Source of the DNA: an uncultured Methanosarcinales archaeon
Lineage (GTDB): Archaea; Nanobdellota; Nanobdellia; Woesearchaeales; GW2011-AR9
NCBI GenBank assembly: GCA_964373955.1
Contig: CAYJXA010000006.1
Coordinates: 1,735 to 65,734 of the forward strand
Direction of reading: 5' to 3'
DNA: 64,000 nucleotides
Shown here: piece after piece, positions 16,655-46,772 of the stretch
How the letters are laid out: each line of letters starts with the position of its first letter
Position numbering within the stretch: the first letter of the stretch is position 1
Program-made: the position numbers and the translations under genes
The notes under the pieces: generated by a model
What the model saw: the letters and a program-made list of their open reading frames with translations, nothing else
Database searches by the model: none
Told to the model about the DNA's origin: nothing

Positions 16655-17344
16655 TTAGGCAGCATCGAGCAAGAAAACTCGTTGTGGATGCAAATCCTGG
16701 ACACGGCAATAAAAGCTATTTCTCTGCGGGTTCACCAATAAATGAGCTGCACCACAAATAGCGGCAATTCGCTGTTCCGGTTCTGCTGCTATTGCTGTCC
16801 GCAGTGCTTTTTCCATTAACACATCCCTTTCTCCTACGTTAATAGAATGTCTTGGAAGGAACCGAACTGCGCTGGGTTCGTCTGCAGTTCCAATGACGCT
16901 CTTAAAGTAACCAAACATTAATCCTGCAACTGCTTGCGAGCGTTGGAATAGTTCTCTCATGCTCTCGGGAGTGTAATTACGGACGCAATTATCAACACTT
17001 CTCTCAACCATCGCTCTGATCTCTGCTTCGATTGCGCTTTCGGTAGAATCATTCATGTACGTTGGTAAAGGTAATCCGACGTTGCGGCAGTATGCCAATG
17101 CTGCTTTTGTTTCATAGTGCTTCAATCGTTGTTCTTCTAAGAATAGAGCAGCTATTTCAGGATGAACTCTTCTGGCAGCCAGAATTTCTTCAGCGAAGCG
17201 TAGATAGGTCTCCTGGGCTTGAACTCTGGAGGTGGATCCTTCTAATAAGATTCTTTGTGGGGATAATTCTTCCAATGTTCGTTCAAGCTGAGCTGCTCCT
17301 CCCGGGAGGGCATGTCTCACTCCAATCAAGATACAATCTGGCAT
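16655..17344 (-). CDS. TraB/PrgY/GumN family protein
   Basis: N-terminus ILIGVRHALPGGAAQLERTLEELSPQRILLE matches the TraB family signature. Confidence 0.55.
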   Translation of the reverse strand: MPDCILIGVRHALPGGAAQLERTLEELSPQRILLEGSTSRVQAQETYLRFAEEILAARRVHPEIAALFLEEQRLKHYETKAALAYCRNVGLPLPTYMNDSTESAIEAEIRAMVERSVDNCVRNYTPESMRELFQRSQAVAGLMFGYFKSVIGTADEPSAVRFLPRHSINVGERDVLMEKALRTAIAAEPEQRIAAICGAAHLLVNPQRNSFYCRVQDLHPQRVFLLDAA

Positions 17345-19734: not shown

Positions 19735-22512
19735 ATGTTGGCAGTAGCAGAACGCATTTCGGATTTGGATGAGCTTCTTCTGGCAAATGTTTCTTCTACG
19801 ACTGCAGTGCGGCGGCATCTTGGAGCATATACTTTCTCTACCTATGTGCGGCGGGAAGACGGTGGCTTAGCTCCCCGGGAAGCGGAGATTGGGTTTTCCT
19901 ATACTCCTCGAGGTCTTCATTTTCTTTTACATGTTGGTGACCAGCGTATTGGTTCAGGGGTTGTAAGTGCTACTGAAGATAGGATGGTGGAATTATTACG
20001 AAGAAGAAATCTTGCGGTGAAACAGTCCGTATCTCCTGATTCCAGTGATAGGGTTTACGTAGAAACAGTTGATAATCTTTCCGTTGTTCGCATTGGATCT
20101 GTTGTAGAAGAAGCACGGCGATTTGATGCCTCCGGACTGGAATATTTTGGTGACGGGGTTTATCTGCCCACTGGATTAATAGAAAAACTAGCAGTCCCAG
20201 AACGAATCCAAGATTCTTTGCCGGGGGACCATACTCCAACCCCTTCTACTCAAGGGTATTATGCCATTAATCCTCGGGATGATCCAGCAATGAAAACTGC
20301 TAAATTCTTTGCTAATCTCACTTTGAGAGAAGAATTCATCGATGGAAGATTTGTGTTAGACGGAAAGCGATATGGATTTCAAGATACATTATCTGTAGGA
20401 GATGCGCAGCGTTTTACCAATCAACATATCCTCACCTTGCAAGAACGAAGGAATAAAATCCAAGATGCCATTCCCGAATTAAAAGTTCACACTCTACGTT
20501 ATCACCCATTTACTGTTCTTTATGCGTTGCACTATCCTGAGGGAAAGCGATTCACTGCTGCAGCGAAGGTAATGAAAGCTCTCTTCTTAGATCAAGCAGG
20601 ATTAGAAGAAATGAAAGGGGGACCATTAAAATTGGAGGGAGAAGGAATTCTCCGTACCAGTGTTATTGAAGCGTACACTTATCTTCATCAACAAGTTTGG
20701 GATTACCTCTCTGCTCATGCCTATGATGTACCTGCCTTGAGCGGGGAAAGAAGAGAAGCAGCAGTAAAGCCCACAAATGCAGCGAGAGTAGATTCTTCTG
20801 CAATATTGCAAGGACAGACGTTTCAATCTCTTGCCATCCTACAACCTGATGGAAGTTATGTTTTGCCTTTGCTTCTCGCGGGAAAGCTGCTTCCCACTTC
20901 ACTAGAAGCGCGTTTGGTTGTTGGTGAGGCTGCTAGGATTATAACTCGAGAAGGAACGGTGGCAGTAGTAGGGAAAAGTACGCTCCCCCCTCCAGATGAA
21001 AAGAATCGGCTTGTAACTTATCGTTGTTCTGCTGATCGATCAACTATTACTATAGAGAGCATTGCTCCGAGCGAGGTAGGATTAGATCGCATTGTTCGTC
21101 TTGCAAGTGTTGCGATTGCAACTTCTCTGCCTGCAGCTGTGGAGAGGACTGTGCCAGCTGCTGCTGCCCTCCCTCCTGCCGAGAGAGTTGAACCTCCTGC
21201 AGCTCCGCGACCAGATGCAAGGGGAGCTATTAGTGCTTCTCAATATGATCCTAGTGCTCCTCCTGCGGATGCTACTATTGGTGTTGCAAAACTAACCCTC
21301 GCTCTCGGTGTTGATAGCGGCACATTTGCACGAGCGCGAGATGGTTTGCTGGGAGCAAAATTAATTTATCGACGCCCTCAGGATCAGGCACTTTGGGCAC
21401 CTGCAGATGCAATTAATGTAATTAGGGAAAGATTGGGCAGGCCGGCAGCTGTAGTTGGATCGATGTCTTCTTCTGCTGAAGCTGCACCGGCGGCTACAGG
21501 TGCAGCACTTTTGGCTCCTCATCGAGTGGATCCTCCTGAAGCACCAGATGAAGAATATGATCCTCGAGTTCATGTTCCATTAGGAACTTTAGTGAATGAG
21601 TTGGTTGTATTCTCTGCGCGCGATAGAGAACAAATTCATCCAGGTATCTTTGCCAAAGCAGCGCGAGAATTCCCGAGAGTACTTCGACAAGAAGATCGAG
21701 GAAGACCATTTCCTTTCATTCGACGTGGCGATGTTAGTGATCTTGTAAGCGTATTTGAAGGAGATGATCGTCTTACACTTGATGCGCTAGCAAAAGCAGG
21801 TATTGCCGCTGTCTATTCATTACCGGTAACGACCAAGGATGAAATGCCTTCAGCTATGACGGTTGATCTCGATCACCTTCTCCAGGATAGGGGAGTAGAT
21901 AATAGAACCATTGCCTTTTACCAAGCACGGCATCATCTGGCCCAATCAGGCGTGAGAGATAAGTTAAGATTAAAAGAGGGGAAATTTTTAGTTGCTTCCA
22001 CTGAACATAGAAGCGAAGTCACTCGAGTTTTGGATGCCTATCTTGCTGAAAGAGGCTTAGGTAATAATGGAAGAGGTGAGGATGAACGTTCTCTTGGTGG
22101 TAGAGCACCACCTCCTCAAAGAGATGATGATGGATCATTCTATCGGGGTTGTGCTGAAGCGTTAGTCGATCAAGGAAAAGTAACCACCGGAACGAGATCG
22201 GGGAATTTTTATGCTCATCTAAGATCTAATTTTGGAGTAGATGCTGTCCCGGAAGGAAGTGCACTTCTAAGTTATGCTCACGAATTAGCAAGAATACGAT
22301 TTGAGGAAGAGCGAAGAACGGAACCTTTAGAAACTGCAGTTGATCGGTTGAAACGGGAATTAGGAATCGGAGATGACGATGCTTTGAGTATTATTGAACG
22401 TACACTACAAGTTAAGGATACCTCCGTTCCAAGAGCTGCTCTTCTACGTCATATCGCGAAGATGAGATTTGTGAGAGATCATCCTTATTTTGCGGATAGG
22501 AGTTCTTCCTAA
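19735..22512 (+). CDS. Large (925 aa) hypothetical protein of atypical Ala/Arg/Gly/Pro-rich composition; likely horizontally acquired
   Basis: Long uninterrupted ORF with strong SD (aggggtgat) and TATA-like boxes upstream. Amino-acid and GC composition clearly differ from flanking genes. No recognisable catalytic motif. Confidence 0.6.
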   Translation: MLAVAERISDLDELLLANVSSTTAVRRHLGAYTFSTYVRREDGGLAPREAEIGFSYTPRGLHFLLHVGDQRIGSGVVSATEDRMVELLRRRNLAVKQSVSPDSSDRVYVETVDNLSVVRIGSVVEEARRFDASGLEYFGDGVYLPTGLIEKLAVPERIQDSLPGDHTPTPSTQGYYAINPRDDPAMKTAKFFANLTLREEFIDGRFVLDGKRYGFQDTLSVGDAQRFTNQHILTLQERRNKIQDAIPELKVHTLRYHPFTVLYALHYPEGKRFTAAAKVMKALFLDQAGLEEMKGGPLKLEGEGILRTSVIEAYTYLHQQVWDYLSAHAYDVPALSGERREAAVKPTNAARVDSSAILQGQTFQSLAILQPDGSYVLPLLLAGKLLPTSLEARLVVGEAARIITREGTVAVVGKSTLPPPDEKNRLVTYRCSADRSTITIESIAPSEVGLDRIVRLASVAIATSLPAAVERTVPAAAALPPAERVEPPAAPRPDARGAISASQYDPSAPPADATIGVAKLTLALGVDSGTFARARDGLLGAKLIYRRPQDQALWAPADAINVIRERLGRPAAVVGSMSSSAEAAPAATGAALLAPHRVDPPEAPDEEYDPRVHVPLGTLVNELVVFSARDREQIHPGIFAKAAREFPRVLRQEDRGRPFPFIRRGDVSDLVSVFEGDDRLTLDALAKAGIAAVYSLPVTTKDEMPSAMTVDLDHLLQDRGVDNRTIAFYQARHHLAQSGVRDKLRLKEGKFLVASTEHRSEVTRVLDAYLAERGLGNNGRGEDERSLGGRAPPPQRDDDGSFYRGCAEALVDQGKVTTGTRSGNFYAHLRSNFGVDAVPEGSALLSYAHELARIRFEEERRTEPLETAVDRLKRELGIGDDDALSIIERTLQVKDTSVPRAALLRHIAKMRFVRDHPYFADRSSS

Positions 22513-22534
22513 ATTCGTGAAAGGGGAAAACTAC

Positions 22535-23248
22535 CTAATTTAATCCTACAATCTCCTCTACTGAAGTTAATCCTGCGGGAGCAGAAGAGATTCCCCGGCG
22601 AAGCACTTCATGAACATAATGTTTACTGCCCGTAAAATCTTGATGTAATATCTCTGCCACTCGTTCTACAGGAAACCCCTGTTTGTATGCCCGAGGGCTG
22701 GACAAGGCATCATACACATCCGCTGCCGCTAGGGCCTGAGAGAGTCCTTCTACCACTAAATCCCGTTGCCGTCGTTCAGGTATATTTGAACGAGGAATAG
22801 TCCGTCGATCTTTTCCGCTGCGGGGATATGATCGAATTCCTTGGTATTCATGATGGCCCACCACAATTTTACTAATAGATTCCGGCAAACGAAGCTGAGG
22901 ATCTTGGTGCGCAGCAGATTCTCGCAGGGTCATGAATCCTAAGCGGACATGGGCTTTGATTGCTCTCCATTCCTCTTCAGAAGGTTTGCCATCCTTCTCC
23001 AGCAAACAGTAGGCTACTCCTCTTTTTCCTACATCATGGAGCATTCCTGCCAATCCTAGCTCATACACTACTCTTTCAGGAAGGCCTAAACTATGTCCAA
23101 TATCAATTGCAAGCAAACCCGTTCGCAAGCAGTGAAGCCGGGAATCAGCATGGTGTTGCTCTAAAGAATCGAGAAAGTACCGCACCGCTGGGCTGGAGGC
23201 TAACTCGTGAAACAGGATCCTACTTTGCGGGTAGAACACGGGAAACAT
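22535..23248 (-). CDS. HD-domain phosphohydrolase
   Basis: H...HD motif (GMLHDVGK) plus downstream His/Asp; 237 aa; Arg/Ala-rich like its neighbour. Confidence 0.6.
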   Translation of the reverse strand: MFPVFYPQSRILFHELASSPAVRYFLDSLEQHHADSRLHCLRTGLLAIDIGHSLGLPERVVYELGLAGMLHDVGKRGVAYCLLEKDGKPSEEEWRAIKAHVRLGFMTLRESAAHQDPQLRLPESISKIVVGHHEYQGIRSYPRSGKDRRTIPRSNIPERRQRDLVVEGLSQALAAADVYDALSSPRAYKQGFPVERVAEILHQDFTGSKHYVHEVLRRGISSAPAGLTSVEEIVGLN

Positions 23249-23294: not shown

Positions 23295-24218
23295 TTAAGA
23301 ATTTATTTTCTTAATCACATAAAATATCTCATTCTTGAATTCGAGAATAGTGAATGAGTACCCTACTCTTTTGCATAGCCATTCCATCCAATTTCGCCGG
23401 GGAACATTCATCACCTTGCCGCTCATGGTCTTGGTAGGAAAACTCACCACCACAAATCGAGCGGGGATATTCCGGAGTACGCTCTCTGTAACTTTATGCC
23501 CTTTTCCCAGATCCAGGACATCCGTCATTTTAAACAGGAAACAAACATCTGCTTTTTCCGCATGGGTAATGGTAATCCAATGCTTTACATCCAGAACTTC
23601 TGCTTTTCCACTAAAGGAGGGATGCTGCCGATGCCACCACGTAAAAAATTGCTGGAGAAAATCTATTTCATCTTCGCTTATATCAAATGCAGAGTATTTT
23701 AGCTTTTGTACTTTCATAAAGGGAATAGAAAAAGGATTTATCCCGCAGCCCAGGTCGATGATTGTTGCTGGACTGCCGGTGACCTGAAAAATGCGTGAAT
23801 ACAGCTGTTCGTAAAATGGAATTCTTTCTTTAGTTGAAGAATGGGTGGACAGAATTTTCTGTACGAGCTCCCGGTGCTTTGCAGAAGGAGTCTTCCCTAA
23901 CAAAGCTACCAATTCTTTCCTTTCCCGCGCTTCTTCTTCTATCCGGAACAAACCATACACTTTCCGCAAATTGGCGCGGATGTCTTTGATGATAGATTTG
24001 TATTGCGCCGATCTCTTGCTAAATGGTGCGGAAAGGAAGAGCCTAGCCTTGGGATTCTGGTGCAAATACGAAGCCAGATTTTCTGTAACGAATTCTTTGC
24101 TAATCTTCCGTAACTCTTTTTTTTGTGTAATATCAATGATTAAAGAAGGCAGGGTTCCTTCCGGAATAGTCTTTCTTGCGGTCATTTCTATCACTCTTCC
24201 TGTTCGGGAAAAGAACAA
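23295..24218 (-). CDS. ArmA/Rmt (FmrO) family 16S rRNA (guanine1405-N7)-methyltransferase homolog
   Basis: Motif matches to ArmA/RmtB as recalled: HSSTKERIPFYEQLY (HSSTNER...), IIDLGCGINPFSIPF (ILDFGCGFNPLAL), YSAFDISEDEIDFL (YHAYDIDRAEIAFL), VCFLFKMTDVL (VVFLLKMLPVL), VVSFPTKTMSGK (VISFPIKSLSGK). About 60 extra N-terminal residues. Confidence 0.65.
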   Translation of the reverse strand: MFFSRTGRVIEMTARKTIPEGTLPSLIIDITQKKELRKISKEFVTENLASYLHQNPKARLFLSAPFSKRSAQYKSIIKDIRANLRKVYGLFRIEEEARERKELVALLGKTPSAKHRELVQKILSTHSSTKERIPFYEQLYSRIFQVTGSPATIIDLGCGINPFSIPFMKVQKLKYSAFDISEDEIDFLQQFFTWWHRQHPSFSGKAEVLDVKHWITITHAEKADVCFLFKMTDVLDLGKGHKVTESVLRNIPARFVVVSFPTKTMSGKVMNVPRRNWMEWLCKRVGYSFTILEFKNEIFYVIKKINS

Positions 24219-24259
24219 ACTATAAAAAGCTTTTTAAAGCCTTGAAGCTAGCTCGTCTT

Positions 24260-24922
24260 ATGCAAGATAAAGTGGGAATGCTCCGCCGTCGTGGTAAGAG
24301 AATATGGGATTTTTTCTGGCATGAAGATTCTCTCTGGAGTTGGCTTGCTAATATTGTGGTTGCTTTTTTAGTGATACGATATCTTATTTATCCCGTCTTG
24401 GGAATAGTTCTGGGAACGAGCTACCCCATTGTTGCAGTGGTAAGCGAGAGCATGGAGCATGGGTTGTACAATGGCGTTATGTGCGGGAAAAGTCTCCCTG
24501 ATTTTAAAGAGTCTTTTGACAATTACTGGGAAGTATGCGGGGAATGGTATGAACAAAAGGGGATTACTCAAGAGCAATTCAAAGCTTTCCCTTTTAAGAA
24601 TGGGTTTAATAAAGGGGATGTCATTATTCTCTGGAAAGCGAATAAAGCAAATCTTGAAGTAGGGGATATTTTGGTATTTCGAGGGAATCGCCCACAGCCC
24701 ATTATTCACCGAATCGTAGACATCTCCGATAGTGGCAATGAGTATTACATCCAAACAAAGGGAGACCACAATAGTAAAAGTATTGAAGGGGGGATGGGGG
24801 AAACCCACATCATTGAAGAAAGAATCGTAGGAAAAGGAGTGCTGCGACTTCCTTATCTTGGATGGGTAAAAATTTTATTTGTTGATGCAGTGCGGCCGTT
24901 GGGAATTAATATTCAGCGATAG
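24260..24922 (+). CDS. Signal peptidase I (archaeal/eukaryal S26B, Sec11-like)
   Basis: TM helix then catalytic-Ser box VVSESMEH. ATG at 24260 chosen over the track start (24176), which overlaps the convergent methyltransferase gene. Confidence 0.65.
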   Translation: MQDKVGMLRRRGKRIWDFFWHEDSLWSWLANIVVAFLVIRYLIYPVLGIVLGTSYPIVAVVSESMEHGLYNGVMCGKSLPDFKESFDNYWEVCGEWYEQKGITQEQFKAFPFKNGFNKGDVIILWKANKANLEVGDILVFRGNRPQPIIHRIVDISDSGNEYYIQTKGDHNSKSIEGGMGETHIIEERIVGKGVLRLPYLGWVKILFVDAVRPLGINIQR

Positions 24923-24928
24923 AGGACT

Positions 24929-26461
24929 TTAAATGAACCCTATCGGGGGGGCATACCGTCTGCAAAAGTCCCGAATTTCTACATCTAACCTTTTGGTTGC
25001 AGCAACATCAACATGGGATCGTACTTGCGCTACCCCTCTTCTGAAGTCAGCATCAGTAATAGGGAAATTATTTGGGTCTTCCTCCCTACATCTTCGGAGA
25101 GCAGCGCTTAACGGTTCTTCAGGATGCTGATGCGATCCAGCAAGTCGTTTCATGGCTTGTACCGCTGCAACATTGCATACCTCTTCAATTTCCCTGGGGG
25201 TGAAACCATCGGTTTGGTCAACTAATTCGGCAAAGGAAACGTCTGAATGAAGCGGTTTTGAAGCAGTATGGATGGTAAAAACTTCCTGACGAAGGGCTGC
25301 ATTGGGAAGGGGGAGATGCAATAAATATCCTATCCTTCCAAATTGAAGAAATCGTGGATCAAGCCCCATAGGATAATTTGTTGCTCCGCATAAACGTATG
25401 CCATCGCTCCATACTCCTTGTAATTTATTGAGTAAGCTAGAGACGGATGCAGGATGACTATGCCCGTCTAAAGCGACATCTTTCATTACGGTTTCAACAT
25501 CATCGCAGTAGAGTACAATTGGAACCTCCGTTCGGGAACGCAATTCTCGAACACCTTCGAAAATGGAGTGCCCTTCTCCTTTCTTATCTGACGCTAGTTC
25601 TAATAAAGTTGTTGCTTCTATTGGCACAAATAAGCTTCCCAAATCTTCTAACGCTAAAATCTTTGCGAGAGTAGTTTTTCCCAGTCCGGGAACGCTCGCC
25701 ACTAACACCGATTGTTCTCGTACACCGTATTTCCTTGCCACGGAAGGATTGAGTGAAGCTCCAAAAACCGTCCAGCGGATAAATTCTAGTACTTCCTGTA
25801 ATCCGGCTACTTGTCGTTCAGAAGTGGGTTCAACTGAAGAAGGGACAGTAGAACGGTATAAATCGTAGAGGAGCGGCGAGGTCTTTGTGCATTCTTCCCC
25901 CGCAAGGATGCGGGATATTTGAACAGTATGTTCTAAAAAATCAAGATAGGAACATCGGGGCTGATCTCGCATTTCGATAAAGCCCTGTCCTTGATAAAGC
26001 CATCTTTGAGAATGTGAAGGTACTCTTTTTGCTTCCGCCGCGGAAGAAAATAATCGAGAAACCCATAGTCCTGTTGCAAAGCCATCCTGGCGATCGGAAA
26101 AGAGGTATCCTCTAATATCCTTTTTGACTTTGGCGTTTGGCGCGCGATAAGATTCGATAGCTCTTGTTGCTCCGAAAGGGTCTTTTCGATGATAGACTCT
26201 TCCATCAGGATAGAGTTGTGAAAGATAATGTTCTAATGCATGAACTTTTTCTTCCGAAAGGGGGACTTTCCATCCCACCATAACCCTATTTTCAATATCT
26301 GGGTATTTGCCAGTCTCTCGGACCGGAGAGAAGGTGAAATACTCCGGAGAAACACCCCCATATTGCTGCACTTTCCTTCGGGCAAGTTCAAAAATAGTTT
26401 CACGAACTATTCTTCCATCATTACTAAACTCTTGAAGAAGAGGATTATATCGCTGGAGCAT
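24929..26461 (-). CDS. AAA+ ATPase with about 250-aa unique N-terminal domain
   Basis: Walker A GLGKTT, Walker B VLYCDDVE, sensor/Arg-finger region GATNYP; 510 aa. Confidence 0.65.
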   Translation of the reverse strand: MLQRYNPLLQEFSNDGRIVRETIFELARRKVQQYGGVSPEYFTFSPVRETGKYPDIENRVMVGWKVPLSEEKVHALEHYLSQLYPDGRVYHRKDPFGATRAIESYRAPNAKVKKDIRGYLFSDRQDGFATGLWVSRLFSSAAEAKRVPSHSQRWLYQGQGFIEMRDQPRCSYLDFLEHTVQISRILAGEECTKTSPLLYDLYRSTVPSSVEPTSERQVAGLQEVLEFIRWTVFGASLNPSVARKYGVREQSVLVASVPGLGKTTLAKILALEDLGSLFVPIEATTLLELASDKKGEGHSIFEGVRELRSRTEVPIVLYCDDVETVMKDVALDGHSHPASVSSLLNKLQGVWSDGIRLCGATNYPMGLDPRFLQFGRIGYLLHLPLPNAALRQEVFTIHTASKPLHSDVSFAELVDQTDGFTPREIEEVCNVAAVQAMKRLAGSHQHPEEPLSAALRRCREEDPNNFPITDADFRRGVAQVRSHVDVAATKRLDVEIRDFCRRYAPPIGFI

Positions 26462-26581: not shown

Positions 26582-26896
26582 ATGTTTTGTCCAAAATGCG
26601 GTTCTTTGCTTCGTCCTAAAGAGAAATCCGGTAAGAAAATCCTCTATTGTAGCTGTGGTTTTACCAAAGCCCCTGGGGGAGAAACAACCACCGAATTAAG
26701 AGAAAAAGCCAACACCGGTAAGAAAATAGAAGTAATTGAAAACGTTGAAACCCATCCCAAGATCAAGATTAATTGTGAAAAGTGCGGAAATAAAGTTGCG
26801 TATTATTGGACTCAACAAACCAGGGGAGCTGATGAACCAGAAACGAGGTTCTTTAAGTGCGCTAAATGTAATTACACCTGGAGAGAATATTCATGA
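26582..26896 (+). CDS. tfs: Transcription factor S (TFIIS-type zinc ribbon)
   Basis: N-terminal CPKCGS...CSCG ribbon. C-terminal CEKCG...QQTRGADEPETRFFKCAKCNYTW with the catalytic acidic hairpin. Confidence 0.8.
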   Translation: MFCPKCGSLLRPKEKSGKKILYCSCGFTKAPGGETTTELREKANTGKKIEVIENVETHPKIKINCEKCGNKVAYYWTQQTRGADEPETRFFKCAKCNYTWREYS

Positions 26897-27411
26897 CCTT
26901 AGCTGGAGAACCAAAGGCAGTCTTTGATTCCCTTTCTAAAACTGACTCTTATAAACAATGGGTAGAACAGCATCCTCAAGGGTTTCTGACTCATTTCTTC
27001 TGCCAACTAGACCAAGAATGTACCCTTAAGAGCCAGTGGGAGGTTGGCTTTTTTGAACCATCCATTGGCAAGATAACCGTCTTTGTTCCTTTGCCTAATG
27101 GCGACTCGGAGATTAAACCGGCAGATGATGTTTTTAAGAAAGATACAACTGAAGTTGAAAAATTAAACTGGAATGAAGTTAAGATGAGCTTTGAAGATGC
27201 TATTAAAATATGGAAAGAAAATCTTCCCCGGCAATTTCCCAATGAGACTATTGGCGACGGCTTTATTATCTTACAGACTTTTCAAGAGCAAACGGTGTGG
27301 AATTTTACCTTTATAACCAAAGCCTTGCGATTTATTAATATGAAAATTCTTGCTGCTGATGGCACCATAGCATCGCATCAGACTATTAATCTGGTGCAGG
27401 GGAAGGAATAA
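26893..27411 (+). CDS. Hypothetical protein
   Basis: ORF whose start overlaps the tfs stop by 4 nt (operon-like). Confidence 0.35.
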   Translation: MTLAGEPKAVFDSLSKTDSYKQWVEQHPQGFLTHFFCQLDQECTLKSQWEVGFFEPSIGKITVFVPLPNGDSEIKPADDVFKKDTTEVEKLNWNEVKMSFEDAIKIWKENLPRQFPNETIGDGFIILQTFQEQTVWNFTFITKALRFINMKILAADGTIASHQTINLVQGKE

Positions 27412-31234: not shown

Positions 31235-31696
31235 ATGGCAAGATTACTGGATAGTTTTTACAACGCTCTTCTGGGAGCAGGACTGCTAGGATTAGTTGCT
31301 TGCAGTACTCCAAGATATGCTCATCGTGATTATGATCAATTCCCCGCTGCGCGGCCAGAAATCGGACTTCATAACATAAAGCAAATTGCAGGTGATATTT
31401 GTGAAGAGTCAGCGGTAACGGAAGATGAATTTCGCTGCACAAAAAATGCCTCCATTCTCAGTAACAGATTTCCAGCAGAATGTCCAAATGGCTACACTCT
31501 TCAAGAAGGTACTTTGGGATACCAATCTTGCCGTCAGGAGATAGTCATTCTTTGGGATCGGGTAAGGAAAGTTATTCCCGGATCAAACCTTGTTGAAGTC
31601 TGCTTGGAGGATAGAACTTGCGTTCGATTGGAAAAGTTTAGAAACCGCCGACAAGCTCGGGAGTTTGCGGAAGCAATACACGCATATCTACAATAA
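31235..31696 (+). CDS. Small secreted lipoprotein-like Cys-containing protein, paralog A (divergent)
   Basis: Lipobox-like LGLVAC; conserved Cys spacing and C-terminal ...RQAREFAEAIHAYLQ shared with paralogs B and C. Confidence 0.5.
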   Translation: MARLLDSFYNALLGAGLLGLVACSTPRYAHRDYDQFPAARPEIGLHNIKQIAGDICEESAVTEDEFRCTKNASILSNRFPAECPNGYTLQEGTLGYQSCRQEIVILWDRVRKVIPGSNLVEVCLEDRTCVRLEKFRNRRQAREFAEAIHAYLQ

Positions 31697-32165: not shown

Positions 32166-35100
32166 TTACCATCCCGCATTTCTGGTAACCTGTCCGCCTT
32201 GAACAGTACTTGCGGGAGCATTTCTTCCGGCATTGCCAAAGTTGGCTTCTCCAATGGAAGAAACGTCAACAGTGAAGCAGACATCGCCTATAGTGCTGGA
32301 TCCTGAAAATGAATCAGCAGTGGAAGGCGCTTGTTTCCATCCAATACACGCTTCTTGGAATAGGTTTGGTGAATAATGGATAATTGTATCTTTATCTGAT
32401 TGTCCGTTTCGTAATTCTATCGGTCCATTGACGTCTCCATTCCGAATATACATATGTGTTGCACCGGCATCAATTCCATCGTTAGGAGTAGTGTCAATCC
32501 ACACATTAAATGAAACAGCTACGCCATCTTCGTTAATGAAAGGAGTAAACGCTTCATCTCTCGGAGCGGAAACACCCCAGGTGATTTTATAGAAATATCC
32601 TTGTAATGGTGTGTCTTCATCCTGTTCTTGATCTCCATCTTCGTCTTTGTGACAGAAATTATTGTCTACACATACTTGCCCTGGATCACAGATGAATTCT
32701 TCTTCTGCTTCTGGATCTGGATTCCTGGCGCAAAGAATGGGGGAGGTAGTTTCAGACCGTTCCATTTGAATATTAGCAACGGCTTGATATGTTCCGGAAA
32801 CGGTTTTAATCATCGCCATTCCTTCCGGTTCTATGTCATAGTGGGCTTCGCAAATGGCAGAAGGGAACCAATTGCTTCCTAACATCGGAGCAAAGGTTTT
32901 ATCAGCATCGAATTGGAAAAGGTCTCGGTCTGTTCTGGGCAGTCCGAAGAGTCTGGTAAGTGCAGGATAGGATTTTATTTCTTTGGTTATGCCGTAAATT
33001 GCTTCGATGGAGGTTTGAGCGATAGCGAGCGAGCCTTGAGTTGCTACTCTGGTTTCTTCTAATGCCGGGGCACGTTCTCGAGCTGAGTCTTGAGCTTCCC
33101 GTCTTCTCTCCCCTAATTCCCGTTCTGCATCAGCTTCCGCTCTATGTGCTGCATCCAGTGCTGCGTCGGCAGCATCTACTTCCACTCGAGCAGCCCTTCT
33201 TGCGTCCTCGGTTGTTGCTGATGCTAACACTTCTCCTGCTTCTCCTACTCTCTTAACCTGTTCTGCGACAACTGCTGATGCTTGAACAGCCCTTTGTTCT
33301 GCTGCTTGTACCTGATTGTCATACGTATAAACCCATTGCTCACCTTGTTGTTTGTACGTTGTAATCCTTCCGTCTGAACTATGGGAAATGAAACCACCAG
33401 TATATTCTCCTTTCTCATTCCGTTGCGCAAGAATAGAGGTTCCATCGGGCTGGGTGATTCCTTCAAAACGCCCTGTAGCCGGGTTAAACATCTCGATACG
33501 TTCCAGACCACCTAACTCTGCTTCGGTTCGTCGGGGAAATTCAACTCCGGCCACCCGAGTTATTCGTGCTGTTCCTCCCTGGACTTCCACTGCTCCTACG
33601 CTTACGCCAATTCCTGCACTGCCGATACTCTCATAATCGTAATTCAATAAGAATAAAGCATTTTCATTTGCATCGTATAAAGTTCCGCCGCTGGGTCTGA
33701 AGCAGCCGTTTGAGTCGGTACAGCTACTTTCTCCTTTGGCATAATAATCACCATCGAGAACTTGTTTCTCACTCGTTTGCGTGTTGAAGATTGTTTGCGT
33801 TTCTTCCTTGAAATTAGTAATAGTTCGACTATTGCCTTGGACTGCGATTACTCCCAATTGGTTTTTGGCGTCAGCACCCTCATAATATTTCACTACTTTT
33901 CCTGATGCGAGGTCGTTGAGAGCATCCTTGTTATCTTTCCCAACGTAAAATGGATTTCCACTGAGGGTAATTGTTCCTTCTTCTTGTTGTTTAAGGGATT
34001 GGAAGGCAACCTGTTGGCCGTTTCTAATGACGTATGTTCCGGATTTGTCTTGATCTGGTTGATCTTTATCTTTTAATTGGATGATGGTAGACTTTACGGG
34101 ATCTCTGCCAACGGTAACCGTTGTTGCCACCTTTATCGTGCCTCCTGTTTTGAGAACATAATTAACGGGATCTGATTTATCCCAATCTATTTGGCTTTCA
34201 CCGTAAGTTTTATAGAGTTCTTCTCCTAATGCCCGTTGTGCTATCTCTCTGATGGAAACTACTCTCGCACCTTCCGTAGTGGGACTGGTTGTTAAGTAAG
34301 GAGCCACGCTTCCTTCCACATAAAAATAATATCCTTTTTCTGTTTCGTAAGTTCCATCAGCTTTTCTGATAACGTGGGGAGCAGATGAAAGTGATGTCGA
34401 ACTAGAAGTACCTGTTCTATCTCCAGATATGGTTAAAGTAGTTATGCTCTGCGCAAGAATAGCTTGTCGTAAAGCTTCTCCTTCTGCTCCAATGTTTTGT
34501 CCGTATCTTACCTTGTTAAGTCCATCATCGTCTGAATACCCTATTGGCATACCGGAGGAATCAATATATATTACACGGCTGTGGTCGGAATCATAGTAGC
34601 TTACGGCGTATTGGATCCCATCGATCTCTCCGCTCTCCTCAATTAGGATGTAACGACGAGATTCTCCACTGCCCGGGAGTTGAAATGAAATCTCTGGAAT
34701 AGGAGTATCAAATGTCCCTGAATCGGAAGCAGGTGAGGAGTCGTCTATTTGCTGGAATATTTGCAGTGCTGTTGTACCTGTATATTGTTGTTCAGAGAAA
34801 TCATCATTCTTAAACAAAAGCTTAAGATTTCCATTCTCTTCAGTAATTGAGAACTCTAAAGTTCTCGTACTTAACCCTGATGGATCGAAATCAACCCTTT
34901 CTCCGTTCGGGAAGACGAGGTTAGTCCCTTCTATCCTAATATTCATCTGTTGCATTAATGCCTGAGCTCGGGGTGTTATTTGAGGGATTATATGTTCAGG
35001 CGGGTTACTAACAGAAGAGGGATTAAAACTATCTCTTGCTCCTCCCTTGAAATAATCATGAAGTACAAAGCTCTGTTGATCGGCACTGGAAGAAGTGTAA

Positions 35101-35231
35101 CACCCTGTTCTACTTCTGCAAATCCAACGGGAGTTCATGCTATCATATTCCCATCCATTCACCGGCACTGCACTCACCATCATAGCACTTGCTAGTAAAA
35201 ACAATACCAATAAAGTCACCATCTTTTTCAT
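32166..35231 (-). CDS. Giant secreted protein 1 (1021 aa): signal peptide, YD-like repeats, Ala/Arg/Glu-rich helical linker, Cys-containing C-terminal domain
   Basis: Signal peptide MKKMVTLLVLFLLASAMMVSA. YD-like segment (...GEYTGGFISHSSDGRITTYKQQGEQWVYTYDNQ...). Long charged helical stretch (AARVEVDAADAALDAAHRAEADAERELGERRREAQ). C-terminal roughly 250 aa with conserved Cys. Confidence 0.65.
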   Translation of the reverse strand: MKKMVTLLVLFLLASAMMVSAVPVNGWEYDSMNSRWICRSRTGCYTSSSADQQSFVLHDYFKGGARDSFNPSSVSNPPEHIIPQITPRAQALMQQMNIRIEGTNLVFPNGERVDFDPSGLSTRTLEFSITEENGNLKLLFKNDDFSEQQYTGTTALQIFQQIDDSSPASDSGTFDTPIPEISFQLPGSGESRRYILIEESGEIDGIQYAVSYYDSDHSRVIYIDSSGMPIGYSDDDGLNKVRYGQNIGAEGEALRQAILAQSITTLTISGDRTGTSSSTSLSSAPHVIRKADGTYETEKGYYFYVEGSVAPYLTTSPTTEGARVVSIREIAQRALGEELYKTYGESQIDWDKSDPVNYVLKTGGTIKVATTVTVGRDPVKSTIIQLKDKDQPDQDKSGTYVIRNGQQVAFQSLKQQEEGTITLSGNPFYVGKDNKDALNDLASGKVVKYYEGADAKNQLGVIAVQGNSRTITNFKEETQTIFNTQTSEKQVLDGDYYAKGESSCTDSNGCFRPSGGTLYDANENALFLLNYDYESIGSAGIGVSVGAVEVQGGTARITRVAGVEFPRRTEAELGGLERIEMFNPATGRFEGITQPDGTSILAQRNEKGEYTGGFISHSSDGRITTYKQQGEQWVYTYDNQVQAAEQRAVQASAVVAEQVKRVGEAGEVLASATTEDARRAARVEVDAADAALDAAHRAEADAERELGERRREAQDSARERAPALEETRVATQGSLAIAQTSIEAIYGITKEIKSYPALTRLFGLPRTDRDLFQFDADKTFAPMLGSNWFPSAICEAHYDIEPEGMAMIKTVSGTYQAVANIQMERSETTSPILCARNPDPEAEEEFICDPGQVCVDNNFCHKDEDGDQEQDEDTPLQGYFYKITWGVSAPRDEAFTPFINEDGVAVSFNVWIDTTPNDGIDAGATHMYIRNGDVNGPIELRNGQSDKDTIIHYSPNLFQEACIGWKQAPSTADSFSGSSTIGDVCFTVDVSSIGEANFGNAGRNAPASTVQGGQVTRNAGW
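35173..35219. repeat. Direct repeat copy 1 (47 bp, 45/47 identical to 35911..35957)
   Basis: ctcaccatcatagcacttgctagtaaaaacaataccaataaagtcac. On the minus strand it encodes VTLLVLFLLASAMMVS of the giant protein 1 signal peptide. Confidence 0.9.
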
Positions 35232-36550: not shown

Positions 36551-39500
36551 TTAGAGTACGCTCTCGCAATAACTTAATCCGCCTTGTTCTAAATCATCAG
36601 CGATAGTAATTATAAATGACACGGTTCCTTCAATCCAGTCTATGACATCCCAGAGGAAGTATAATAGGTTACATGCTGAAGAGAGAGTTCCTGAAACAGC
36701 ACAACTAATTCCACATCCTAAAATAGTGGCCGTGTGCGCTAAAGCGAGAGGATCTTTTAAAGCATTACGCAATAGATTAATTATTCCATCGTAGAACTGT
36801 GAAAAAGGCAGGATGTACCACAATTCGCCAATAAAATACTTGCACGTAAGCAGTCCTTCCAACTCACTGCAGCTCTCCACTGTGGCAAGATTTGCTTTGA
36901 CTTCATTCTCCAAACAATAAATTTTTCGACACTTGATTTGTCGATATTTGTCTAAATTATGAACTAACCCCGGTACACAGAGTGCGGCTATCGAGAGATA
37001 CAAATTATCATACACGCTCCGTGCCGGCTTCCATGCTTGCTGATCCTTCCCTAAGGGGGAAGTGGGACTTTTTAATATTTCAATGTTCATGAGTTGATTA
37101 TATTTTTCAGGAATCGCCCCCACCCAGGTGTCATACCACCCCAGGCCAGTATCCGCTTTACAAGATAGAATACTGAGTGGTACTGAAAGGGCTGTTGCAG
37201 CAGTGTCAGCAGTATCAACAGCTCCATTCATTCCCAGGCAAGTTGCAATCATGGAGCCGGAGGCGGGGGTTTCCCGGAGAATATTATCTGTTCCTGATTC
37301 TAGTGCATTTACAATTTTGGCTGCTCCAATAATAACAGTAGCAATCCCGGCAATATACCTCAACCACTTAATAATTTTCTCGAGCGTTCCAATGACTCCC
37401 CAGAATCCAGTGCTGGCGGCTTCTCGTTCGTTTTTAATTATCTCTTCCAAATTAGCATCAGGAGCGCCCAAAGTTGAAAAGCCAAAGGGAACACTCACCG
37501 TTACTTCCTGCAGTTCCGCTCTAGCAAGAGCATTTCCGTCAACGGCAGAAAAGATTTGGAAGGTACACATATAACCCACTTCTCGAGTGGTAAATTCTTC
37601 TCCGCCAGTTTCTGCCAAATTAAACAGAGCTACCCCGTCAAAGGGCTCAAACTCCAGCACAATCTTTGGTCGGGGAGAAGTGTCTCCTTGCGGACTTACA
37701 CCCGCGTACAGAAGTGCCCTGCTTACAACGGGAGTGGGCAATACAGTAGGAGTTGCGTTTTGATCTAATCTCCCTCCGGGAGGAGCAGCTGTTTGTTGTT
37801 GCGTCGGAACACATTCCCTCAATTCAATGTTTACTGCTTCTGCCGTTGTTCCTGATTTTTCCAAGCGGATTTCAAAAGGCATTCGCGTATAAGTAAGAGG
37901 AGCGATATCTAAATCAATGAAGTTACTGAGTCCTCCCAGCGGAACAACTCGGCTTACTTCCCAATAATCTGGATTTTCTTCAAGGCTCAATCCTAAGAGA
38001 TCAAAAGTCAGGGTGCCTTTACTATTTTGCACTGCACTCCACTCTACGTTCTTTGCGTCCGTAGGCCAAGAGTTTGCATCATTTCCAGCAGTATCTTGAA
38101 TTCTGATATCCACCCTTACTCCTCGCTCGGGGCCACTTTTGATCGGGTCCGTTATTATTTCGCAGTCCCATGCTCCGCCTTCCGCTCTTTCACAACTCTG
38201 TTCACTAAAAACTTGCCAGCCCGTTGTGGGTGAAATATCCCGGGTAAATTCATTCTCCGGAAATAAGGTTTCAGCATCCATGATGAGATCATTTGCGTTC
38301 ACTAGAATGGTGAGTCCACTACTTTCTAACGCTTTGAATTTGATTTTGAGCCGGTCATTGCTTTGGAAGTAATCTTTATCTCCAACATCGGAAACTCCAT
38401 ACGCTTCCATGGTTTCTACTTTTGGTCCAGTGGTATCTACCGCCAGTTCCAATTCTGGCTTCTCGGCCTCATTTCCAACATTATCTTCGAATTTTGAAAG
38501 CCCTATTCTGGCTACGCCGTCAGAACTAAATGTTTTGCTGGTATCCCAATAGCAACTGAAAATGGAAAGAGTTTGATTGCAAAAGGTAGGCGCTTCGGAA
38601 GAGCTCCTTCCCAGTGCATCCAGATTTGCCCTGATGCCATTTGCAGTTATTCCTGCTCCTTGCTCATCTACTGCTAACAATATCCGTTGATTGCCACTCT
38701 TTACGTAACTTTTCCCTTCAAACATCCGTTCGGTGCCAAAGAACTGTATTCGGGGAAGGGAAGTATCGCGAGTAAAACTTTCTACCAAATTCCGCTCGGC
38801 AATATTTCCAAATTCATCTTCGGCTATTATTTGCACTGAGATAGAATTCTCTCGGGGATTTACTTCCACATTGCGCCATGCACAATGCCACACTCCCACT
38901 TCGTCGGGATCTTCATCACAATCTGCTTCCTCTCCATTCAATGATGCTAATCCAGAATATCCTTTTACTACCGGAATACTTGATTCAACAATATCAAGAG
39001 TAATATCTGTTCTGGTAACAAAATTTCCCACGAATTGTCCAAAGGCAGTAAAATTAAGATTATCTTGAATTGCCGGCGCCACAAAATCAATGGGAAAACT
39101 TTGAATGGCAGATGTTCCGCTATGCCCTAGCCAATCCTGAGCTCGTATTTTTATTCGTTGTACTTGCTGCCCGGATAAACTTGCCTGGAGAATTCCCGAA
39201 AATTGCCCATCATTGAGATAATTATATTCTCGCCTTCCGGGAGCATCGATACTTATGGTTTGGAGGACGTTTCCAGTATCAGGATCAACCATCTCGATTG
39301 TCTTTATGCCCACCGAAGGGGCTCCCGACGCAATGCTATCATCAACGGTAAAATCAAGTTGGATTTTTCCTTCGCTATTCTGGCGAACATCGTGAATCTG
39401 TATTCCCGGAGCAGAACCATCCGATCTGATCACTTCTCCGTTAGAAACGGAATCAGGAACGCTTAGAGCATTGAGAAAATTATAAATGACTTGGAAGGCA

Positions 39501-39844
39501 TATTCCGCTTCGCTGATTCCATCGGTTAAGGGACTAATATATTCACAGGTTGCTCCCAGGGCAGTTTCCGTGCAGGAAGTGAAGTCAGCTTCGTTTGCTC
39601 CGATCTTAATTTTAACATCATTGGGATTGATGGCTCTATCCGGAACCCCGCTAATGGTTGCTTCAACTGTCCAAGTATCACCTTGAGCGTCGAGATATCC
39701 TCGAATTCCTGCTTCTCCTGAATTTTTGGTTATTTGAACGGAAGCAGCAAGCGCATCCGCGGAATAAACGGGAATACTAATGACTAAGGCAATGATGAAA
39801 AGTCCAACAATACTCCATCCTCTTTGAGGGTTCATCTCATCCAT
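36551..39844 (-). CDS. Giant secreted protein 2 (1097 aa) with signal peptide and about 300-aa hydrophobic Cys-rich C-terminal region
   Basis: N-terminal signal sequence GLFIIALVISIPVYSADA. Long beta-rich ectodomain. C-terminal region with several hydrophobic segments and many Cys. Start overlaps the upstream gene's end by 8 nt. Confidence 0.65.
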   Translation of the reverse strand: MDEMNPQRGWSIVGLFIIALVISIPVYSADALAASVQITKNSGEAGIRGYLDAQGDTWTVEATISGVPDRAINPNDVKIKIGANEADFTSCTETALGATCEYISPLTDGISEAEYAFQVIYNFLNALSVPDSVSNGEVIRSDGSAPGIQIHDVRQNSEGKIQLDFTVDDSIASGAPSVGIKTIEMVDPDTGNVLQTISIDAPGRREYNYLNDGQFSGILQASLSGQQVQRIKIRAQDWLGHSGTSAIQSFPIDFVAPAIQDNLNFTAFGQFVGNFVTRTDITLDIVESSIPVVKGYSGLASLNGEEADCDEDPDEVGVWHCAWRNVEVNPRENSISVQIIAEDEFGNIAERNLVESFTRDTSLPRIQFFGTERMFEGKSYVKSGNQRILLAVDEQGAGITANGIRANLDALGRSSSEAPTFCNQTLSIFSCYWDTSKTFSSDGVARIGLSKFEDNVGNEAEKPELELAVDTTGPKVETMEAYGVSDVGDKDYFQSNDRLKIKFKALESSGLTILVNANDLIMDAETLFPENEFTRDISPTTGWQVFSEQSCERAEGGAWDCEIITDPIKSGPERGVRVDIRIQDTAGNDANSWPTDAKNVEWSAVQNSKGTLTFDLLGLSLEENPDYWEVSRVVPLGGLSNFIDLDIAPLTYTRMPFEIRLEKSGTTAEAVNIELRECVPTQQQTAAPPGGRLDQNATPTVLPTPVVSRALLYAGVSPQGDTSPRPKIVLEFEPFDGVALFNLAETGGEEFTTREVGYMCTFQIFSAVDGNALARAELQEVTVSVPFGFSTLGAPDANLEEIIKNEREAASTGFWGVIGTLEKIIKWLRYIAGIATVIIGAAKIVNALESGTDNILRETPASGSMIATCLGMNGAVDTADTAATALSVPLSILSCKADTGLGWYDTWVGAIPEKYNQLMNIEILKSPTSPLGKDQQAWKPARSVYDNLYLSIAALCVPGLVHNLDKYRQIKCRKIYCLENEVKANLATVESCSELEGLLTCKYFIGELWYILPFSQFYDGIINLLRNALKDPLALAHTATILGCGISCAVSGTLSSACNLLYFLWDVIDWIEGTVSFIITIADDLEQGGLSYCESVL

Positions 39845-46400: not shown

Positions 46401-46772
46401 CTAATCTTTTTTTCTCGTAATCATTCTTCCCAACACTCCTGCCAATTCTGCAGCACCAATCATTAGCTCTGGAGCATATCGAGCAATGGTTGGCGCAACT
46501 ATGCCTGCCGTCAACAATCCAAGTAGGGTTCCTTGGCCATGCAATAACCATTCTCCCCATGTTGGAGCTTTAGTTACGTAGTGTTCATAAAAATGGTGCA
46601 TACCCATGTACCCTGCCACCGTGCCAGCAAGTACTGTTGCATACGCTAATGGATCATAAAGGCTACTTCTAGCATAGGTCCGTACTTGTGTGTCTGCGTA
46701 GCCTTGTCTATACGTTTGTCTTGCTATTTCTCCTAAATCCTGCACTGAGTTTCGAAGGTCTATTAAAACCAT
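46401..46772 (-). CDS. Small membrane protein
   Basis: 123 aa, three hydrophobic helices. Confidence 0.35.
   Translation of the reverse strand: MVLIDLRNSVQDLGEIARQTYRQGYADTQVRTYARSSLYDPLAYATVLAGTVAGYMGMHHFYEHYVTKAPTWGEWLLHGQGTLLGLLTAGIVAPTIARYAPELMIGAAELAGVLGRMITRKKD

Follow-up and report, generated by a model that had tools for sequence, protein, structure and literature searches.

An archaeal-branch member of the FmrO/Arm 16S rRNA methyltransferase family, conserved across a Woesearchaeota-type lineage

The DNA analysed here is a stretch of 64,000 nucleotides (the window) from contig CAYJXA010000006.1 of assembly GCA_964373955.1, and the gene of interest is a minus-strand open reading frame (ORF) at 23295-24218, which encodes a methyltransferase of the FmrO/Arm family, the family of the 16S rRNA m7G1405 enzymes ArmA, RmtC and Sgm. 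The ORF had been described in an initial annotation as an ArmA/Rmt-type homolog in an archaeal setting, and both parts of that description stand. We consider it probable that the gene is the lineage's own, vertically inherited archaeal-branch Arm/FmrO 16S rRNA methyltransferase, which would place a constitutive m7G at the equivalent of G1405 in a Woesearchaeota-type archaeon (Nanoarchaeota in GTDB). The gene and its immediate features, with the evidence for each, are as follows.

23295..24185, minus strand: coding sequence of the 296-residue FmrO/Arm-family methyltransferase (ORF listing, identical protein P0001, Pfam FmrO, PDB matches, ratio of nonsynonymous to synonymous substitution rates (dN/dS))
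23298..23777, minus strand: C-terminal class I (Rossmann) methyltransferase domain dependent on S-adenosylmethionine (SAM), residues 137-296 (alignment to RmtC, RmtF and Sgm, conservation, strand/helix alternation of the model)
23778..24185, minus strand: N-terminal helical domain, residues 1-136, equivalent to N1 plus N2 and the presumed 30S docking module (AlphaFold helices, hhalign with profile A2, family conservation)
23531-23529, minus strand: codon of K219, the equivalent of RmtC K204
24116-24111, minus strand: codons of E24/L25, in place of RmtC K20/Y21
23966-23964, minus strand: codon of R74, in place of RmtC H54
24186..24218, minus strand: 11 extra codons from an upstream TTG, probably noncoding 5' leader or promoter-proximal DNA (P0001, homologue N-termini, position of the TATA-like box)
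24186..24259, no strand: divergent intergenic region of 74 bp with two A/T boxes (read from the sequence)

The methyltransferase gene is intact, with its stop codon at 23295-23297 and a preferred ATG start at 24185-24183. The ORF described initially is present, but its start at 24218 was not retained: translation most likely begins at the ATG at 24185 and yields 296 residues, rather than at the TTG at 24218, because the database protein P0001, 100% identical to the methyltransferase, is 296 residues long and the N-termini of 46 homologues begin at the same aligned position as the MTARK... of the 296-residue version. Archaeal TATA boxes follow a usual consensus and lie at a usual spacing from the transcription start. 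Two A/T boxes in the 74-bp gap are putative promoters by that consensus, TTTAAAAA at 24238-24231 on the minus strand, 46 nt ahead of the methyltransferase ATG, and TATAAAAA at 24221-24228 on the plus strand, 32 nt ahead of the ATG of the divergent signal peptidase gene. Given the position of the TTTAAAAA box and the usual TATA-to-start spacing, the TTG at 24218 would lie upstream of the expected transcript start.

Membership in the FmrO/Arm family was established by several searches. The protein matches the Pfam family FmrO (PF07091) with an E-value of 3.3e-27 and 95.9 bits, against a gathering score of 27, over profile positions 31-254 of 255, so that the profile search proposed for the gene gave a clear match. 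Its sequence matches in the PDB are solely m7G1405 enzymes, namely RmtC (1e-20), RmtF (1e-14), Sgm (3e-14), ArmA (4e-12) and RmtB (2e-10), and the next match has an E-value of 0.34. An AlphaFold model built on a 47-sequence alignment has a mean predicted local distance difference test score (pLDDT) of 91 and a predicted template modelling score (pTM) of 0.81; when it was compared with the PDB by Foldseek, the 15 top matches were all Sgm, RmtC, RmtB, RmtF or ArmA (E 3e-16 to 6e-11), and the next match stood at 8e-8. The case in which another Rossmann methyltransferase family would give the best hits did not occur, in sequence or in predicted fold. Profile alignment with hhalign, for which an RmtC sequence identical to PDB 8GHU chain A over residues 1-281 was used, paired residues 8-293 of the diverse archaeal profile A2 with RmtC 4-280 at a probability of 99.84; with the close-family profile A1, residues 63-260 alone were aligned and N1 was left unaligned.

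The signature blocks quoted in the initial annotation are present in the translation. Four of the five match as written (296-residue numbering): HSSTKER at 115, DLGCGINPF at 144, FLFKM at 216 and SFPTKTMSGK at 248. The fifth, FDISEDEIDFL at residue 167, is one residue longer than the pattern given for it and needs three wildcard positions, not two. Residue roles were taken from the RmtC-30S cryo-EM paper (PMC10288597) and the Sgm paper (PMC2896518), and the equivalent residues are as follows.

HSSTKER motif: residues 115-121, in the N-terminal domain
Key residues of the Rossmann domain: D144/G146/G148 (motif I), D168 (motif II), D199 (motif III), K219 and the SFPTK-TMSGK-x-M loop (248-259)
SAM binding: S117 (RmtC S107)
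SAM binding: R121 (Sgm R108-type Arg, RmtC R111)
SAM binding, motif I: D144 (RmtC D134, Sgm D131)
SAM binding, motif II: D168 (RmtC D160, Sgm D156)
SAM binding, motif III: D199 (Sgm D182)
Contact to N7 of G1405: K219 (RmtC K204, Sgm K199)
Aromatic stacked between SAM and G1405: F80 (RmtC Y60, Sgm F64)
Further active-site and loop residues: K252, S255, K257 (RmtC K236, S239, R241)
Loop Met: M259, in a register relative to RmtC M245 that is uncertain

Conservation of these positions was assessed in two sets, 47 close homologues and 141 archaeal representatives of clusters at 50% identity. S117, R121, D144, G146/G148, D168 and D199 are conserved in 46-47 of the 47 close homologues, and the counts among the 141 representatives are 139 for S117, 141 for R121, 140 for D144 and 141 for Asp or Glu at position 168. 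K219 is present in all 47 close homologues and in 140 of the 141 representatives, and position 80 is Phe or Tyr in all 141. The Phe at this position is unproblematic, because the Y60F variant of RmtC is active (PMC10288597) and Sgm and RmtF also carry Phe there. The family shows little or no variation at S255, K257 (for Arg) and M259, although the register of the loop relative to M245 is uncertain. In RmtC, the elements that distort helix 44 (h44) are the loop 237-246, with Ser239, Arg241 and Met245, together with Arg211 (PMC10288597).

The N-terminal part of the protein had been described as an extension of about 60 extra residues, which the alignment of profile A2 to RmtC contradicts: there is no extension, and the region is the N1 subdomain of the family with a 16-residue insertion. 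The additional length relative to RmtC amounts to 4 N-terminal residues plus this insertion (46-61), which falls between the second and third N1 helices, and N1 otherwise aligns to RmtC 4-41. Helices are predicted at 11-19, 30-43, 45-52, 60-94, 101-112 and 116-136, with a block-mean pLDDT of 85-98 past the first ten residues, and the Foldseek alignments to Sgm and RmtC run over the whole length (293-298 columns). I19, K22, E24 and L25 are invariant in the close family, in which K67, R70 and R74 are also conserved; of these, K67 and R70 retain the RmtC N1 contacts K47 and R50. In RmtC, the N1 subdomain is reported to mediate docking onto the 30S subunit (PMC10288597).

The gene belongs to a large archaeal family. 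A search of 5.8 billion clustered proteins (90% clusters) returned 349 matches; the best 120 of them, the identical twin P0001 aside, align over more than 85% of the length at 49-77% identity. The organism names among the 349, where given, are Woesearchaeota, Nanoarchaeota and Nanoarchaeia. An exhaustive search of 50% cluster representatives gave 1498 clusters at a threshold of E<=1e-3, a number that fell to 1010 at E<=1e-10 and to 217 at E<=1e-30. When one genome per GTDB species was scanned, full-length relatives of 42-57% identity were found in at least 106 species-representative genomes, nearly all of them labelled Woesearchaeota or Nanoarchaeota. The best 80 of these 106, each either full-length or cut off by a contig end, bear the labels Woesearchaeota, Nanoarchaeota, Nanoarchaeia or 'archaeon', probable mislabels aside. 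With 349 matches, 217 clusters and 106 species, a chromosomal homolog in an archaeon is not unusual, as it had been taken to be, but one member of a large conserved family.

About 30 of the related metagenome-assembled genomes (MAGs), loci L001, L007 and L011 among them, are titled 'uncultured Methanosarcinales archaeon'; L062 is labelled 'Parcubacteria' (Parcubacteria group bacterium), and 'Candidatus Taylorbacteria' also occurs among the labels, with protein P0025 listed. The contigs labelled Methanosarcinales or Parcubacteria match as closely as those labelled Woesearchaeota, most of them share the archaeal gene order, and L062 itself has the arrangement of signal peptidase and methyltransferase genes described below. 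The Methanosarcinales, Parcubacteria and Taylorbacteria labels on these relatives are probably placeholders or binning errors.

The genes on the upstream side of the methyltransferase form a backbone that is shared among the related loci:

24260..24922, plus strand: archaeal-type signal peptidase I, the divergent neighbour (NCBIfam TIGR02228 sigpep_I_arch, 69.3 bits against a cut-off of 51.85)
26582-26896, plus strand: transcription factor S (TFS; TFS_arch, 88.2 bits against a cut-off of 64.75)
26893-27411, plus strand: conserved 172-residue protein with no Pfam or NCBIfam match, the backbone gene after TFS

The signal peptidase gene is divergently adjacent in 71 of the 75 related loci with enough upstream DNA, and TFS with the 172-residue protein lies upstream in 43 of the 47 loci with more than 5 kb of upstream sequence; the downstream side of the methyltransferase gene is variable. 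Within the window, the gene for the 172-residue protein begins 4 nt before the TFS stop codon. The archaeal character of the surroundings is borne out by TFS_arch and the archaeal signal peptidase model and by NreA, Elp3 and RtcB, all of which are found in the window.

Divergence of the methyltransferase follows that of its neighbours. Mantel correlations of its distances with those of the signal peptidase, TFS and the 172-residue protein are 0.60, 0.56 and 0.71 (p 0.001), of the same strength as the correlations among the three neighbours themselves (0.51-0.61). Against the closest relative (L088; GCA_053530855.1), at 75% identity, the methyltransferase has a dN/dS of about 0.07 with synonymous sites near saturation, and its neighbours have values of 0.03-0.07. 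The methyltransferase is under purifying selection. The 141 archaeal representatives are all 22-32% identical to RmtC, RmtF and Sgm, without a gradient. The composition of the gene is that of the host core, with a GC content of 0.419 and a lysine share among lysine plus arginine, K/(K+R), of 0.62, like the signal peptidase and TFS. Lineage-wide presence, synteny, co-divergence, dN/dS and the equal distance to the bacterial enzymes point to old vertical inheritance within the Woesearchaeota/Nanoarchaeota lineage rather than to recent transfer. Horizontal gene transfer had been among the explanations proposed at the outset; for a recent event it is contradicted by the conserved signal peptidase-TFS backbone, the Mantel correlations, dN/dS and host-core composition.

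The remaining genes close to the methyltransferase are of a different kind:

24929..26461, minus strand: AAA+ ATPase inserted between the signal peptidase and TFS genes (Pfam AAA and AAA_lid_3)
19735..23248, no strand: variable downstream flank, consisting of a 925-residue orphan ORF and an HD-domain protein
19735-22512, plus strand: the 925-residue orphan ORF
22535-23248, minus strand: the HD-domain protein (weak Cas3-HD similarity)

The AAA+ ATPase gene splits the otherwise contiguous signal peptidase-TFS pair, is present in 0 of 80 related loci, is absent from the closest relative L088, and encodes an Arg-rich protein with K/(K+R) of 0.32; it is a genome-specific insertion outside the methyltransferase unit. 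The ATPase also shows weak similarity to the anti-phage ATPases IetA/IteA (E about 1e-7). The 925-residue ORF has no Pfam, NCBIfam, PADLOC or phage match and relatives in 0 of the 80 loci, and the closest relative has a HAD hydrolase gene in its place. The HD gene was found in 1 of 80 loci, yet the closest relative keeps a version that is 87% identical with a dN/dS of 0.04. The 925-residue ORF, the HD protein and the ATPase are rich in Arg, Ala, Gly and Pro, with K/(K+R) of 0.24-0.32. The contrast noticed earlier, of a gene sitting next to compositionally foreign neighbours, is therefore real, whereas the methyltransferase itself has host-core composition and the neighbours are insertions. A mobile or defence island formed by these odd neighbours was considered and rejected, as there were only the weak Cas3-HD and IetA-like matches, no phage match and no meaningful flanking repeats.

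Scattered genes of similar composition occur among the Lys-rich core of the window, with K/(K+R) <= 0.33 and, by codon position, high GC at the first (GC1) and low GC at the third (GC3); the set comprises 3007-5049, 16655-17344, 19735-22512, 22535-23248, 24929-26461, 31235-31696, 45083-46273, 46401-46772, 50467-52197 and 63038-63964. These Arg/Ala/Gly/Pro-rich genes may constitute a compositional class of their own beside the Lys-rich core, perhaps taken up from elsewhere and since ameliorated in part at synonymous sites. Three large minus-strand ORFs, at 32166-35231 (1021 residues), 36551-39844 (1097 residues) and 39837-42185 (782 residues), have no Pfam match at E<=1e-5, and relatives of the 1021-residue ORF are present in 6 of 80 loci. 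A methionyl-tRNA synthetase with extra B3_4 and tRNA-binding domains is encoded at 42259-45045 on the minus strand, and the adjoining gene, the Arg-rich one at 45083-46273 on the same strand, encodes a protein with an S-adenosylmethionine synthetase C-terminal domain.

Distant archaeal members of the family were found beside genes of translation and transcription: L1/L10, L21e/Rpb4, S10/RpoB/RpoH and aEF-1alpha/aEF-2 (loci L081, L083, L085 and L086). In two of these four loci, a gene for a VTT-domain membrane protein follows the methyltransferase gene. In two further clusters, represented by P0190 (482 residues) and P0224 (489 residues), an additional class I methyltransferase domain (Methyltransf_11/25) is fused to the FmrO domain; the relatives found for this second domain are generic class I methyltransferases, none of them informative.

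Family membership, fold, residue conservation, lineage-wide conservation, synteny and purifying selection are shown by the data above. By analogy with RmtC and Sgm, we infer which nucleotide the methyltransferase modifies, how it does so and what this does for the cell. The 1392-1406 primer site of 16S/18S rRNA, which is universally conserved, includes G1405. The basic helical N-terminal domain would dock on the interface surface of the small subunit formed by h44, h24, h27 and h45, as in RmtC and Sgm. The SG(K/R)xM loop and nearby residues would then distort the top of h44 so that the G at the E. coli 1405 position, a universally conserved base, flips out; K219 and the aromatic F80 would place the flipped base, and the Rossmann domain would move the methyl group from SAM to N7. 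The modification would be constitutive on the cell's own ribosomes, which it would also make insensitive to 4,6-disubstituted deoxystreptamine aminoglycosides, either incidentally or to the cell's advantage. A constitutive m7G1405 is proposed because the catalytic and G1405-positioning residues are kept, the docking domain is basic, the gene is retained in reduced genomes, and distant members lie beside genes for ribosomal proteins, RNA polymerase and elongation factors. Among the three roles suggested in the initial annotation, namely horizontal transfer, self-protection and housekeeping, the last is the best fit to the lineage-wide conservation, synteny, co-divergence and purifying selection.

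Several observations weigh against this assignment. The NCBIfam model NF000466, the Rmt equivalog (guanine(1405)-N(7)) by which NCBI names acquired Rmt resistance genes, scores 144.4 bits, under its 250-bit cut-off, and the subfamily models RmtB-H give 40-80 bits against cut-offs of 500-550. Judged by sequence, the gene is a family member by evolution, yet it is no acquired Rmt resistance gene, and an annotation as such is unwarranted because it falls below the NF000466 cut-off. Global superposition of the model on its Foldseek matches is poor (TM 0.55-0.66, root-mean-square deviation (rmsd) 9-12 A), and the model has a single unbroken helix, 60-94, where RmtC breaks at the N1/N2 junction; on the model, the N1/N2 domain arrangement may differ from that of RmtC. 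RmtC R211 aligns to L226, at a position that is Arg in just 26 of the 47 close homologues, and K252, the equivalent of RmtC K236, is not strictly conserved. Husain et al. (2010) left undecided whether the archaeal member NEQ545 shares the Arm function (PMC2896518), and a full-text literature search found no assay of an archaeal Arm-family member. The last of these points concerns the contacts to helix 45 (h45). K20, Y21 and H54 of RmtC are near-universal or important N1 residues that contact G1515/G1516 of h45 (PMC10288597), and they are mapped by hhalign to E24, L25 and R74, each of which is found in all 47 close homologues.

Because these three contacts are replaced, docking on helix 45 has probably been re-wired. 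The replacement is coupled: among the 141 representatives, positions 24 and 74 are acidic plus Arg in 93, acidic plus His in 6, basic plus His in 13 and basic plus Arg in 0 (Fisher p 8e-13, without correction for shared ancestry). Archaeal members with the bacterial-like K-Y/F-H signature also occur in archaeal genomic contexts, and the distant K-F-H member P0206 is archaeal by gene context; the switch thus arose within the archaeal branch and is no plain adaptation separating archaea from bacteria. A similarity gradient from the archaeal K-Y-H class toward the bacterial enzymes was looked for and not found, as the 22-32% range of identity to RmtC, RmtF and Sgm holds for all classes. Rfam gave no match in the window, and motif scans covering the window together with 86 loci (1.18 Mb) detected no rRNA. 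The paired replacement of helix-45 contacts is a natural experiment on how Arm enzymes recognise the 30S subunit.

Three other explanations were weighed. The same m7G1405 chemistry might be kept as protection from the aminoglycosides of neighbouring bacteria, that is, as intrinsic resistance rather than ribosome tuning, which we regard as unlikely but worth serious attention. Aminoglycosides act on some archaeal ribosomes, as neomycin selection in methanococci illustrates, actinomycetes occur in the kinds of habitat (groundwater, sediment and marine biofilm) that yielded related MAGs, and all characterised family members confer aminoglycoside resistance (PMC10288597, PMC2896518). Near-universal retention, fixed synteny and co-divergence across the order are, however, more typical of a housekeeping gene, as are the ribosomal and translation gene neighbourhoods of the distant members, and a 2026 preprint on reduced fermentative bacteria of the candidate phyla radiation argues, for this case by analogy only, against a likely resistance role on the ground that such cells take up aminoglycosides poorly. 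A change of target, by which the archaeal branch with the same fold would modify another rRNA nucleotide or another RNA, appears rather improbable. The exchange of the K20/Y21/H54 contacts for E/L/R, the lack of conservation at R211, the predicted difference in N1/N2 architecture, the score below the Rmt equivalog cut-off, the undecided function of NEQ545 (PMC2896518) and the two clusters fused to a second methyltransferase domain would all fit it; on the other side, the residues for SAM and the flipped G (S117, R121, D144, D168, D199, K219 and the aromatic at 80) and the SG(K/R)xM loop are kept throughout, R50 and K47 of N1 are retained as R70 and K67, and some archaeal members keep K-Y/F-H in equally archaeal contexts, which places the switch inside one orthologous group.

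That the gene was recently acquired as a bacterial-type resistance gene within a foreign island, or protects an aminoglycoside producer from its own product, is contradicted by the evidence and hardly credible. The 925-residue ORF, HD and AAA genes around it do differ in amino-acid composition and are mostly missing in relatives; the methyltransferase, in contrast, has host-core composition and sits in the conserved backbone, so that the odd genes are the insertions. Its archaeal representatives are about equally far from RmtC, RmtF and Sgm, and its divergence tracks that of its neighbours. As to producer self-protection, raised as an option in the initial annotation, the ORFs annotated at about 12.7-36.5 kb of the window include none recognised as an aminoglycoside biosynthesis gene, although several of them have no family match. 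No repeats bracket the methyltransferase gene.

Beyond this single gene, a wider proposal is put forward tentatively, as a possibility that we hold with some doubt: m7G1405 could be a constitutive, phylum-wide rRNA modification in Woesearchaeota/Nanoarchaeota. The enzymes responsible would form an ancient Arm/FmrO branch with a housekeeping role and at least 217 clusters at 50% identity, to which the clinical resistance enzymes are related and in which the change from K-Y-H to E-L-R marks re-wired docking. If the probable role proposed for the gene is correct, an archaeal lineage would carry, as a normal feature of its ribosome, the modification that gives pathogens pan-resistance to gentamicin-class drugs, and the resistance family would have a relative with a housekeeping role, which might also serve it as an evolutionary reservoir. 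It would also add a first m7G to the known set of archaeal 16S rRNA modifications, in which, to our knowledge, none has been reported so far. For resistome surveys, it would be a warning that FmrO matches on DPANN contigs are native genes rather than mobile resistance.

The methyltransferase can be compared with several known systems. With RmtC (Proteus mirabilis; PDB 6PQB, 8GHU) and the acquired Rmt/ArmA enzymes it shares the Pfam family and the order of helical N1/N2 followed by a Rossmann domain. Like RmtC, it has the SAM-binding residues, K204, the Y60 aromatic, K236, S239, R241 (as Lys), the loop Met and the N1 residues K47/R50; unlike RmtC, to which it is only 26-27% identical, it has E24/L25/R74 for K20/Y21/H54, L226 for R211, a 16-residue insertion in N1 and a predicted continuous helix across the N1/N2 junction. 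The acquired Rmt/ArmA genes are borne on plasmids or transposons in Gram-negative pathogens, whereas the present gene is chromosomal, vertically inherited and lineage-wide in archaea. Among the enzymes of aminoglycoside-producing actinomycetes (Sgm/FmrO/GrmA; PDB 3LCU) is its best Foldseek match (E 2.8e-16), and it resembles Sgm in the Phe at the Y60 position (Sgm F64) and in keeping the equivalents of R108/D156/D182/K199, but it differs from this group in its reduced-genome archaeal host, in having no biosynthetic cluster nearby and in an identity of 27%. NpmA/KamB (m1A1408), RsmG, Bud23 and TrmB are likewise class I SAM methyltransferases acting on rRNA or tRNA, and NpmA targets the top of h44; in contrast to the m7G1405 enzymes, none of them gave a sequence match in the Pfam, NCBIfam and PDB searches, and NpmA/KamB and other m7G RNA methyltransferases have been assigned to a different family with other active-site residues (PMC2896518, Table 3).

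The nearest precedent is archaeal. NEQ545 of Nanoarchaeum equitans was described as 'the first archaeal ortholog' of the Arm family, with C-terminal motifs that are perfectly conserved and an N-terminal domain that has diverged strongly and lacks one N-terminal helix (Husain et al., 2010; PMC2896518), and a 16S rRNA methyltransferase homologue was later listed among the 15 genes of a Nanoarchaeota genomic signature (Podar et al., 2013; PMC3655853). A full-text literature search found no paper on the Arm family in Woesearchaeota or DPANN, and the name NEQ545 is absent from the match lists of the homology searches. Compared by description only, the present enzyme is, like NEQ545, an Arm member from Nanoarchaeota with conserved C-terminal motifs and a diverged N-terminal domain, while its N1, unlike that of NEQ545 with its missing helix, is longer than that of RmtC. 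The presence of the family in Nanoarchaeota has therefore been on record since 2010, and nothing here overturns current views. The new findings are refinements and establish no new kind of system: the archaeal branch is much larger than had been recognised in 2010-2013, it has a fixed synteny and co-diverges with its neighbours, and the switch from K-Y-H to E-L-R is coupled.

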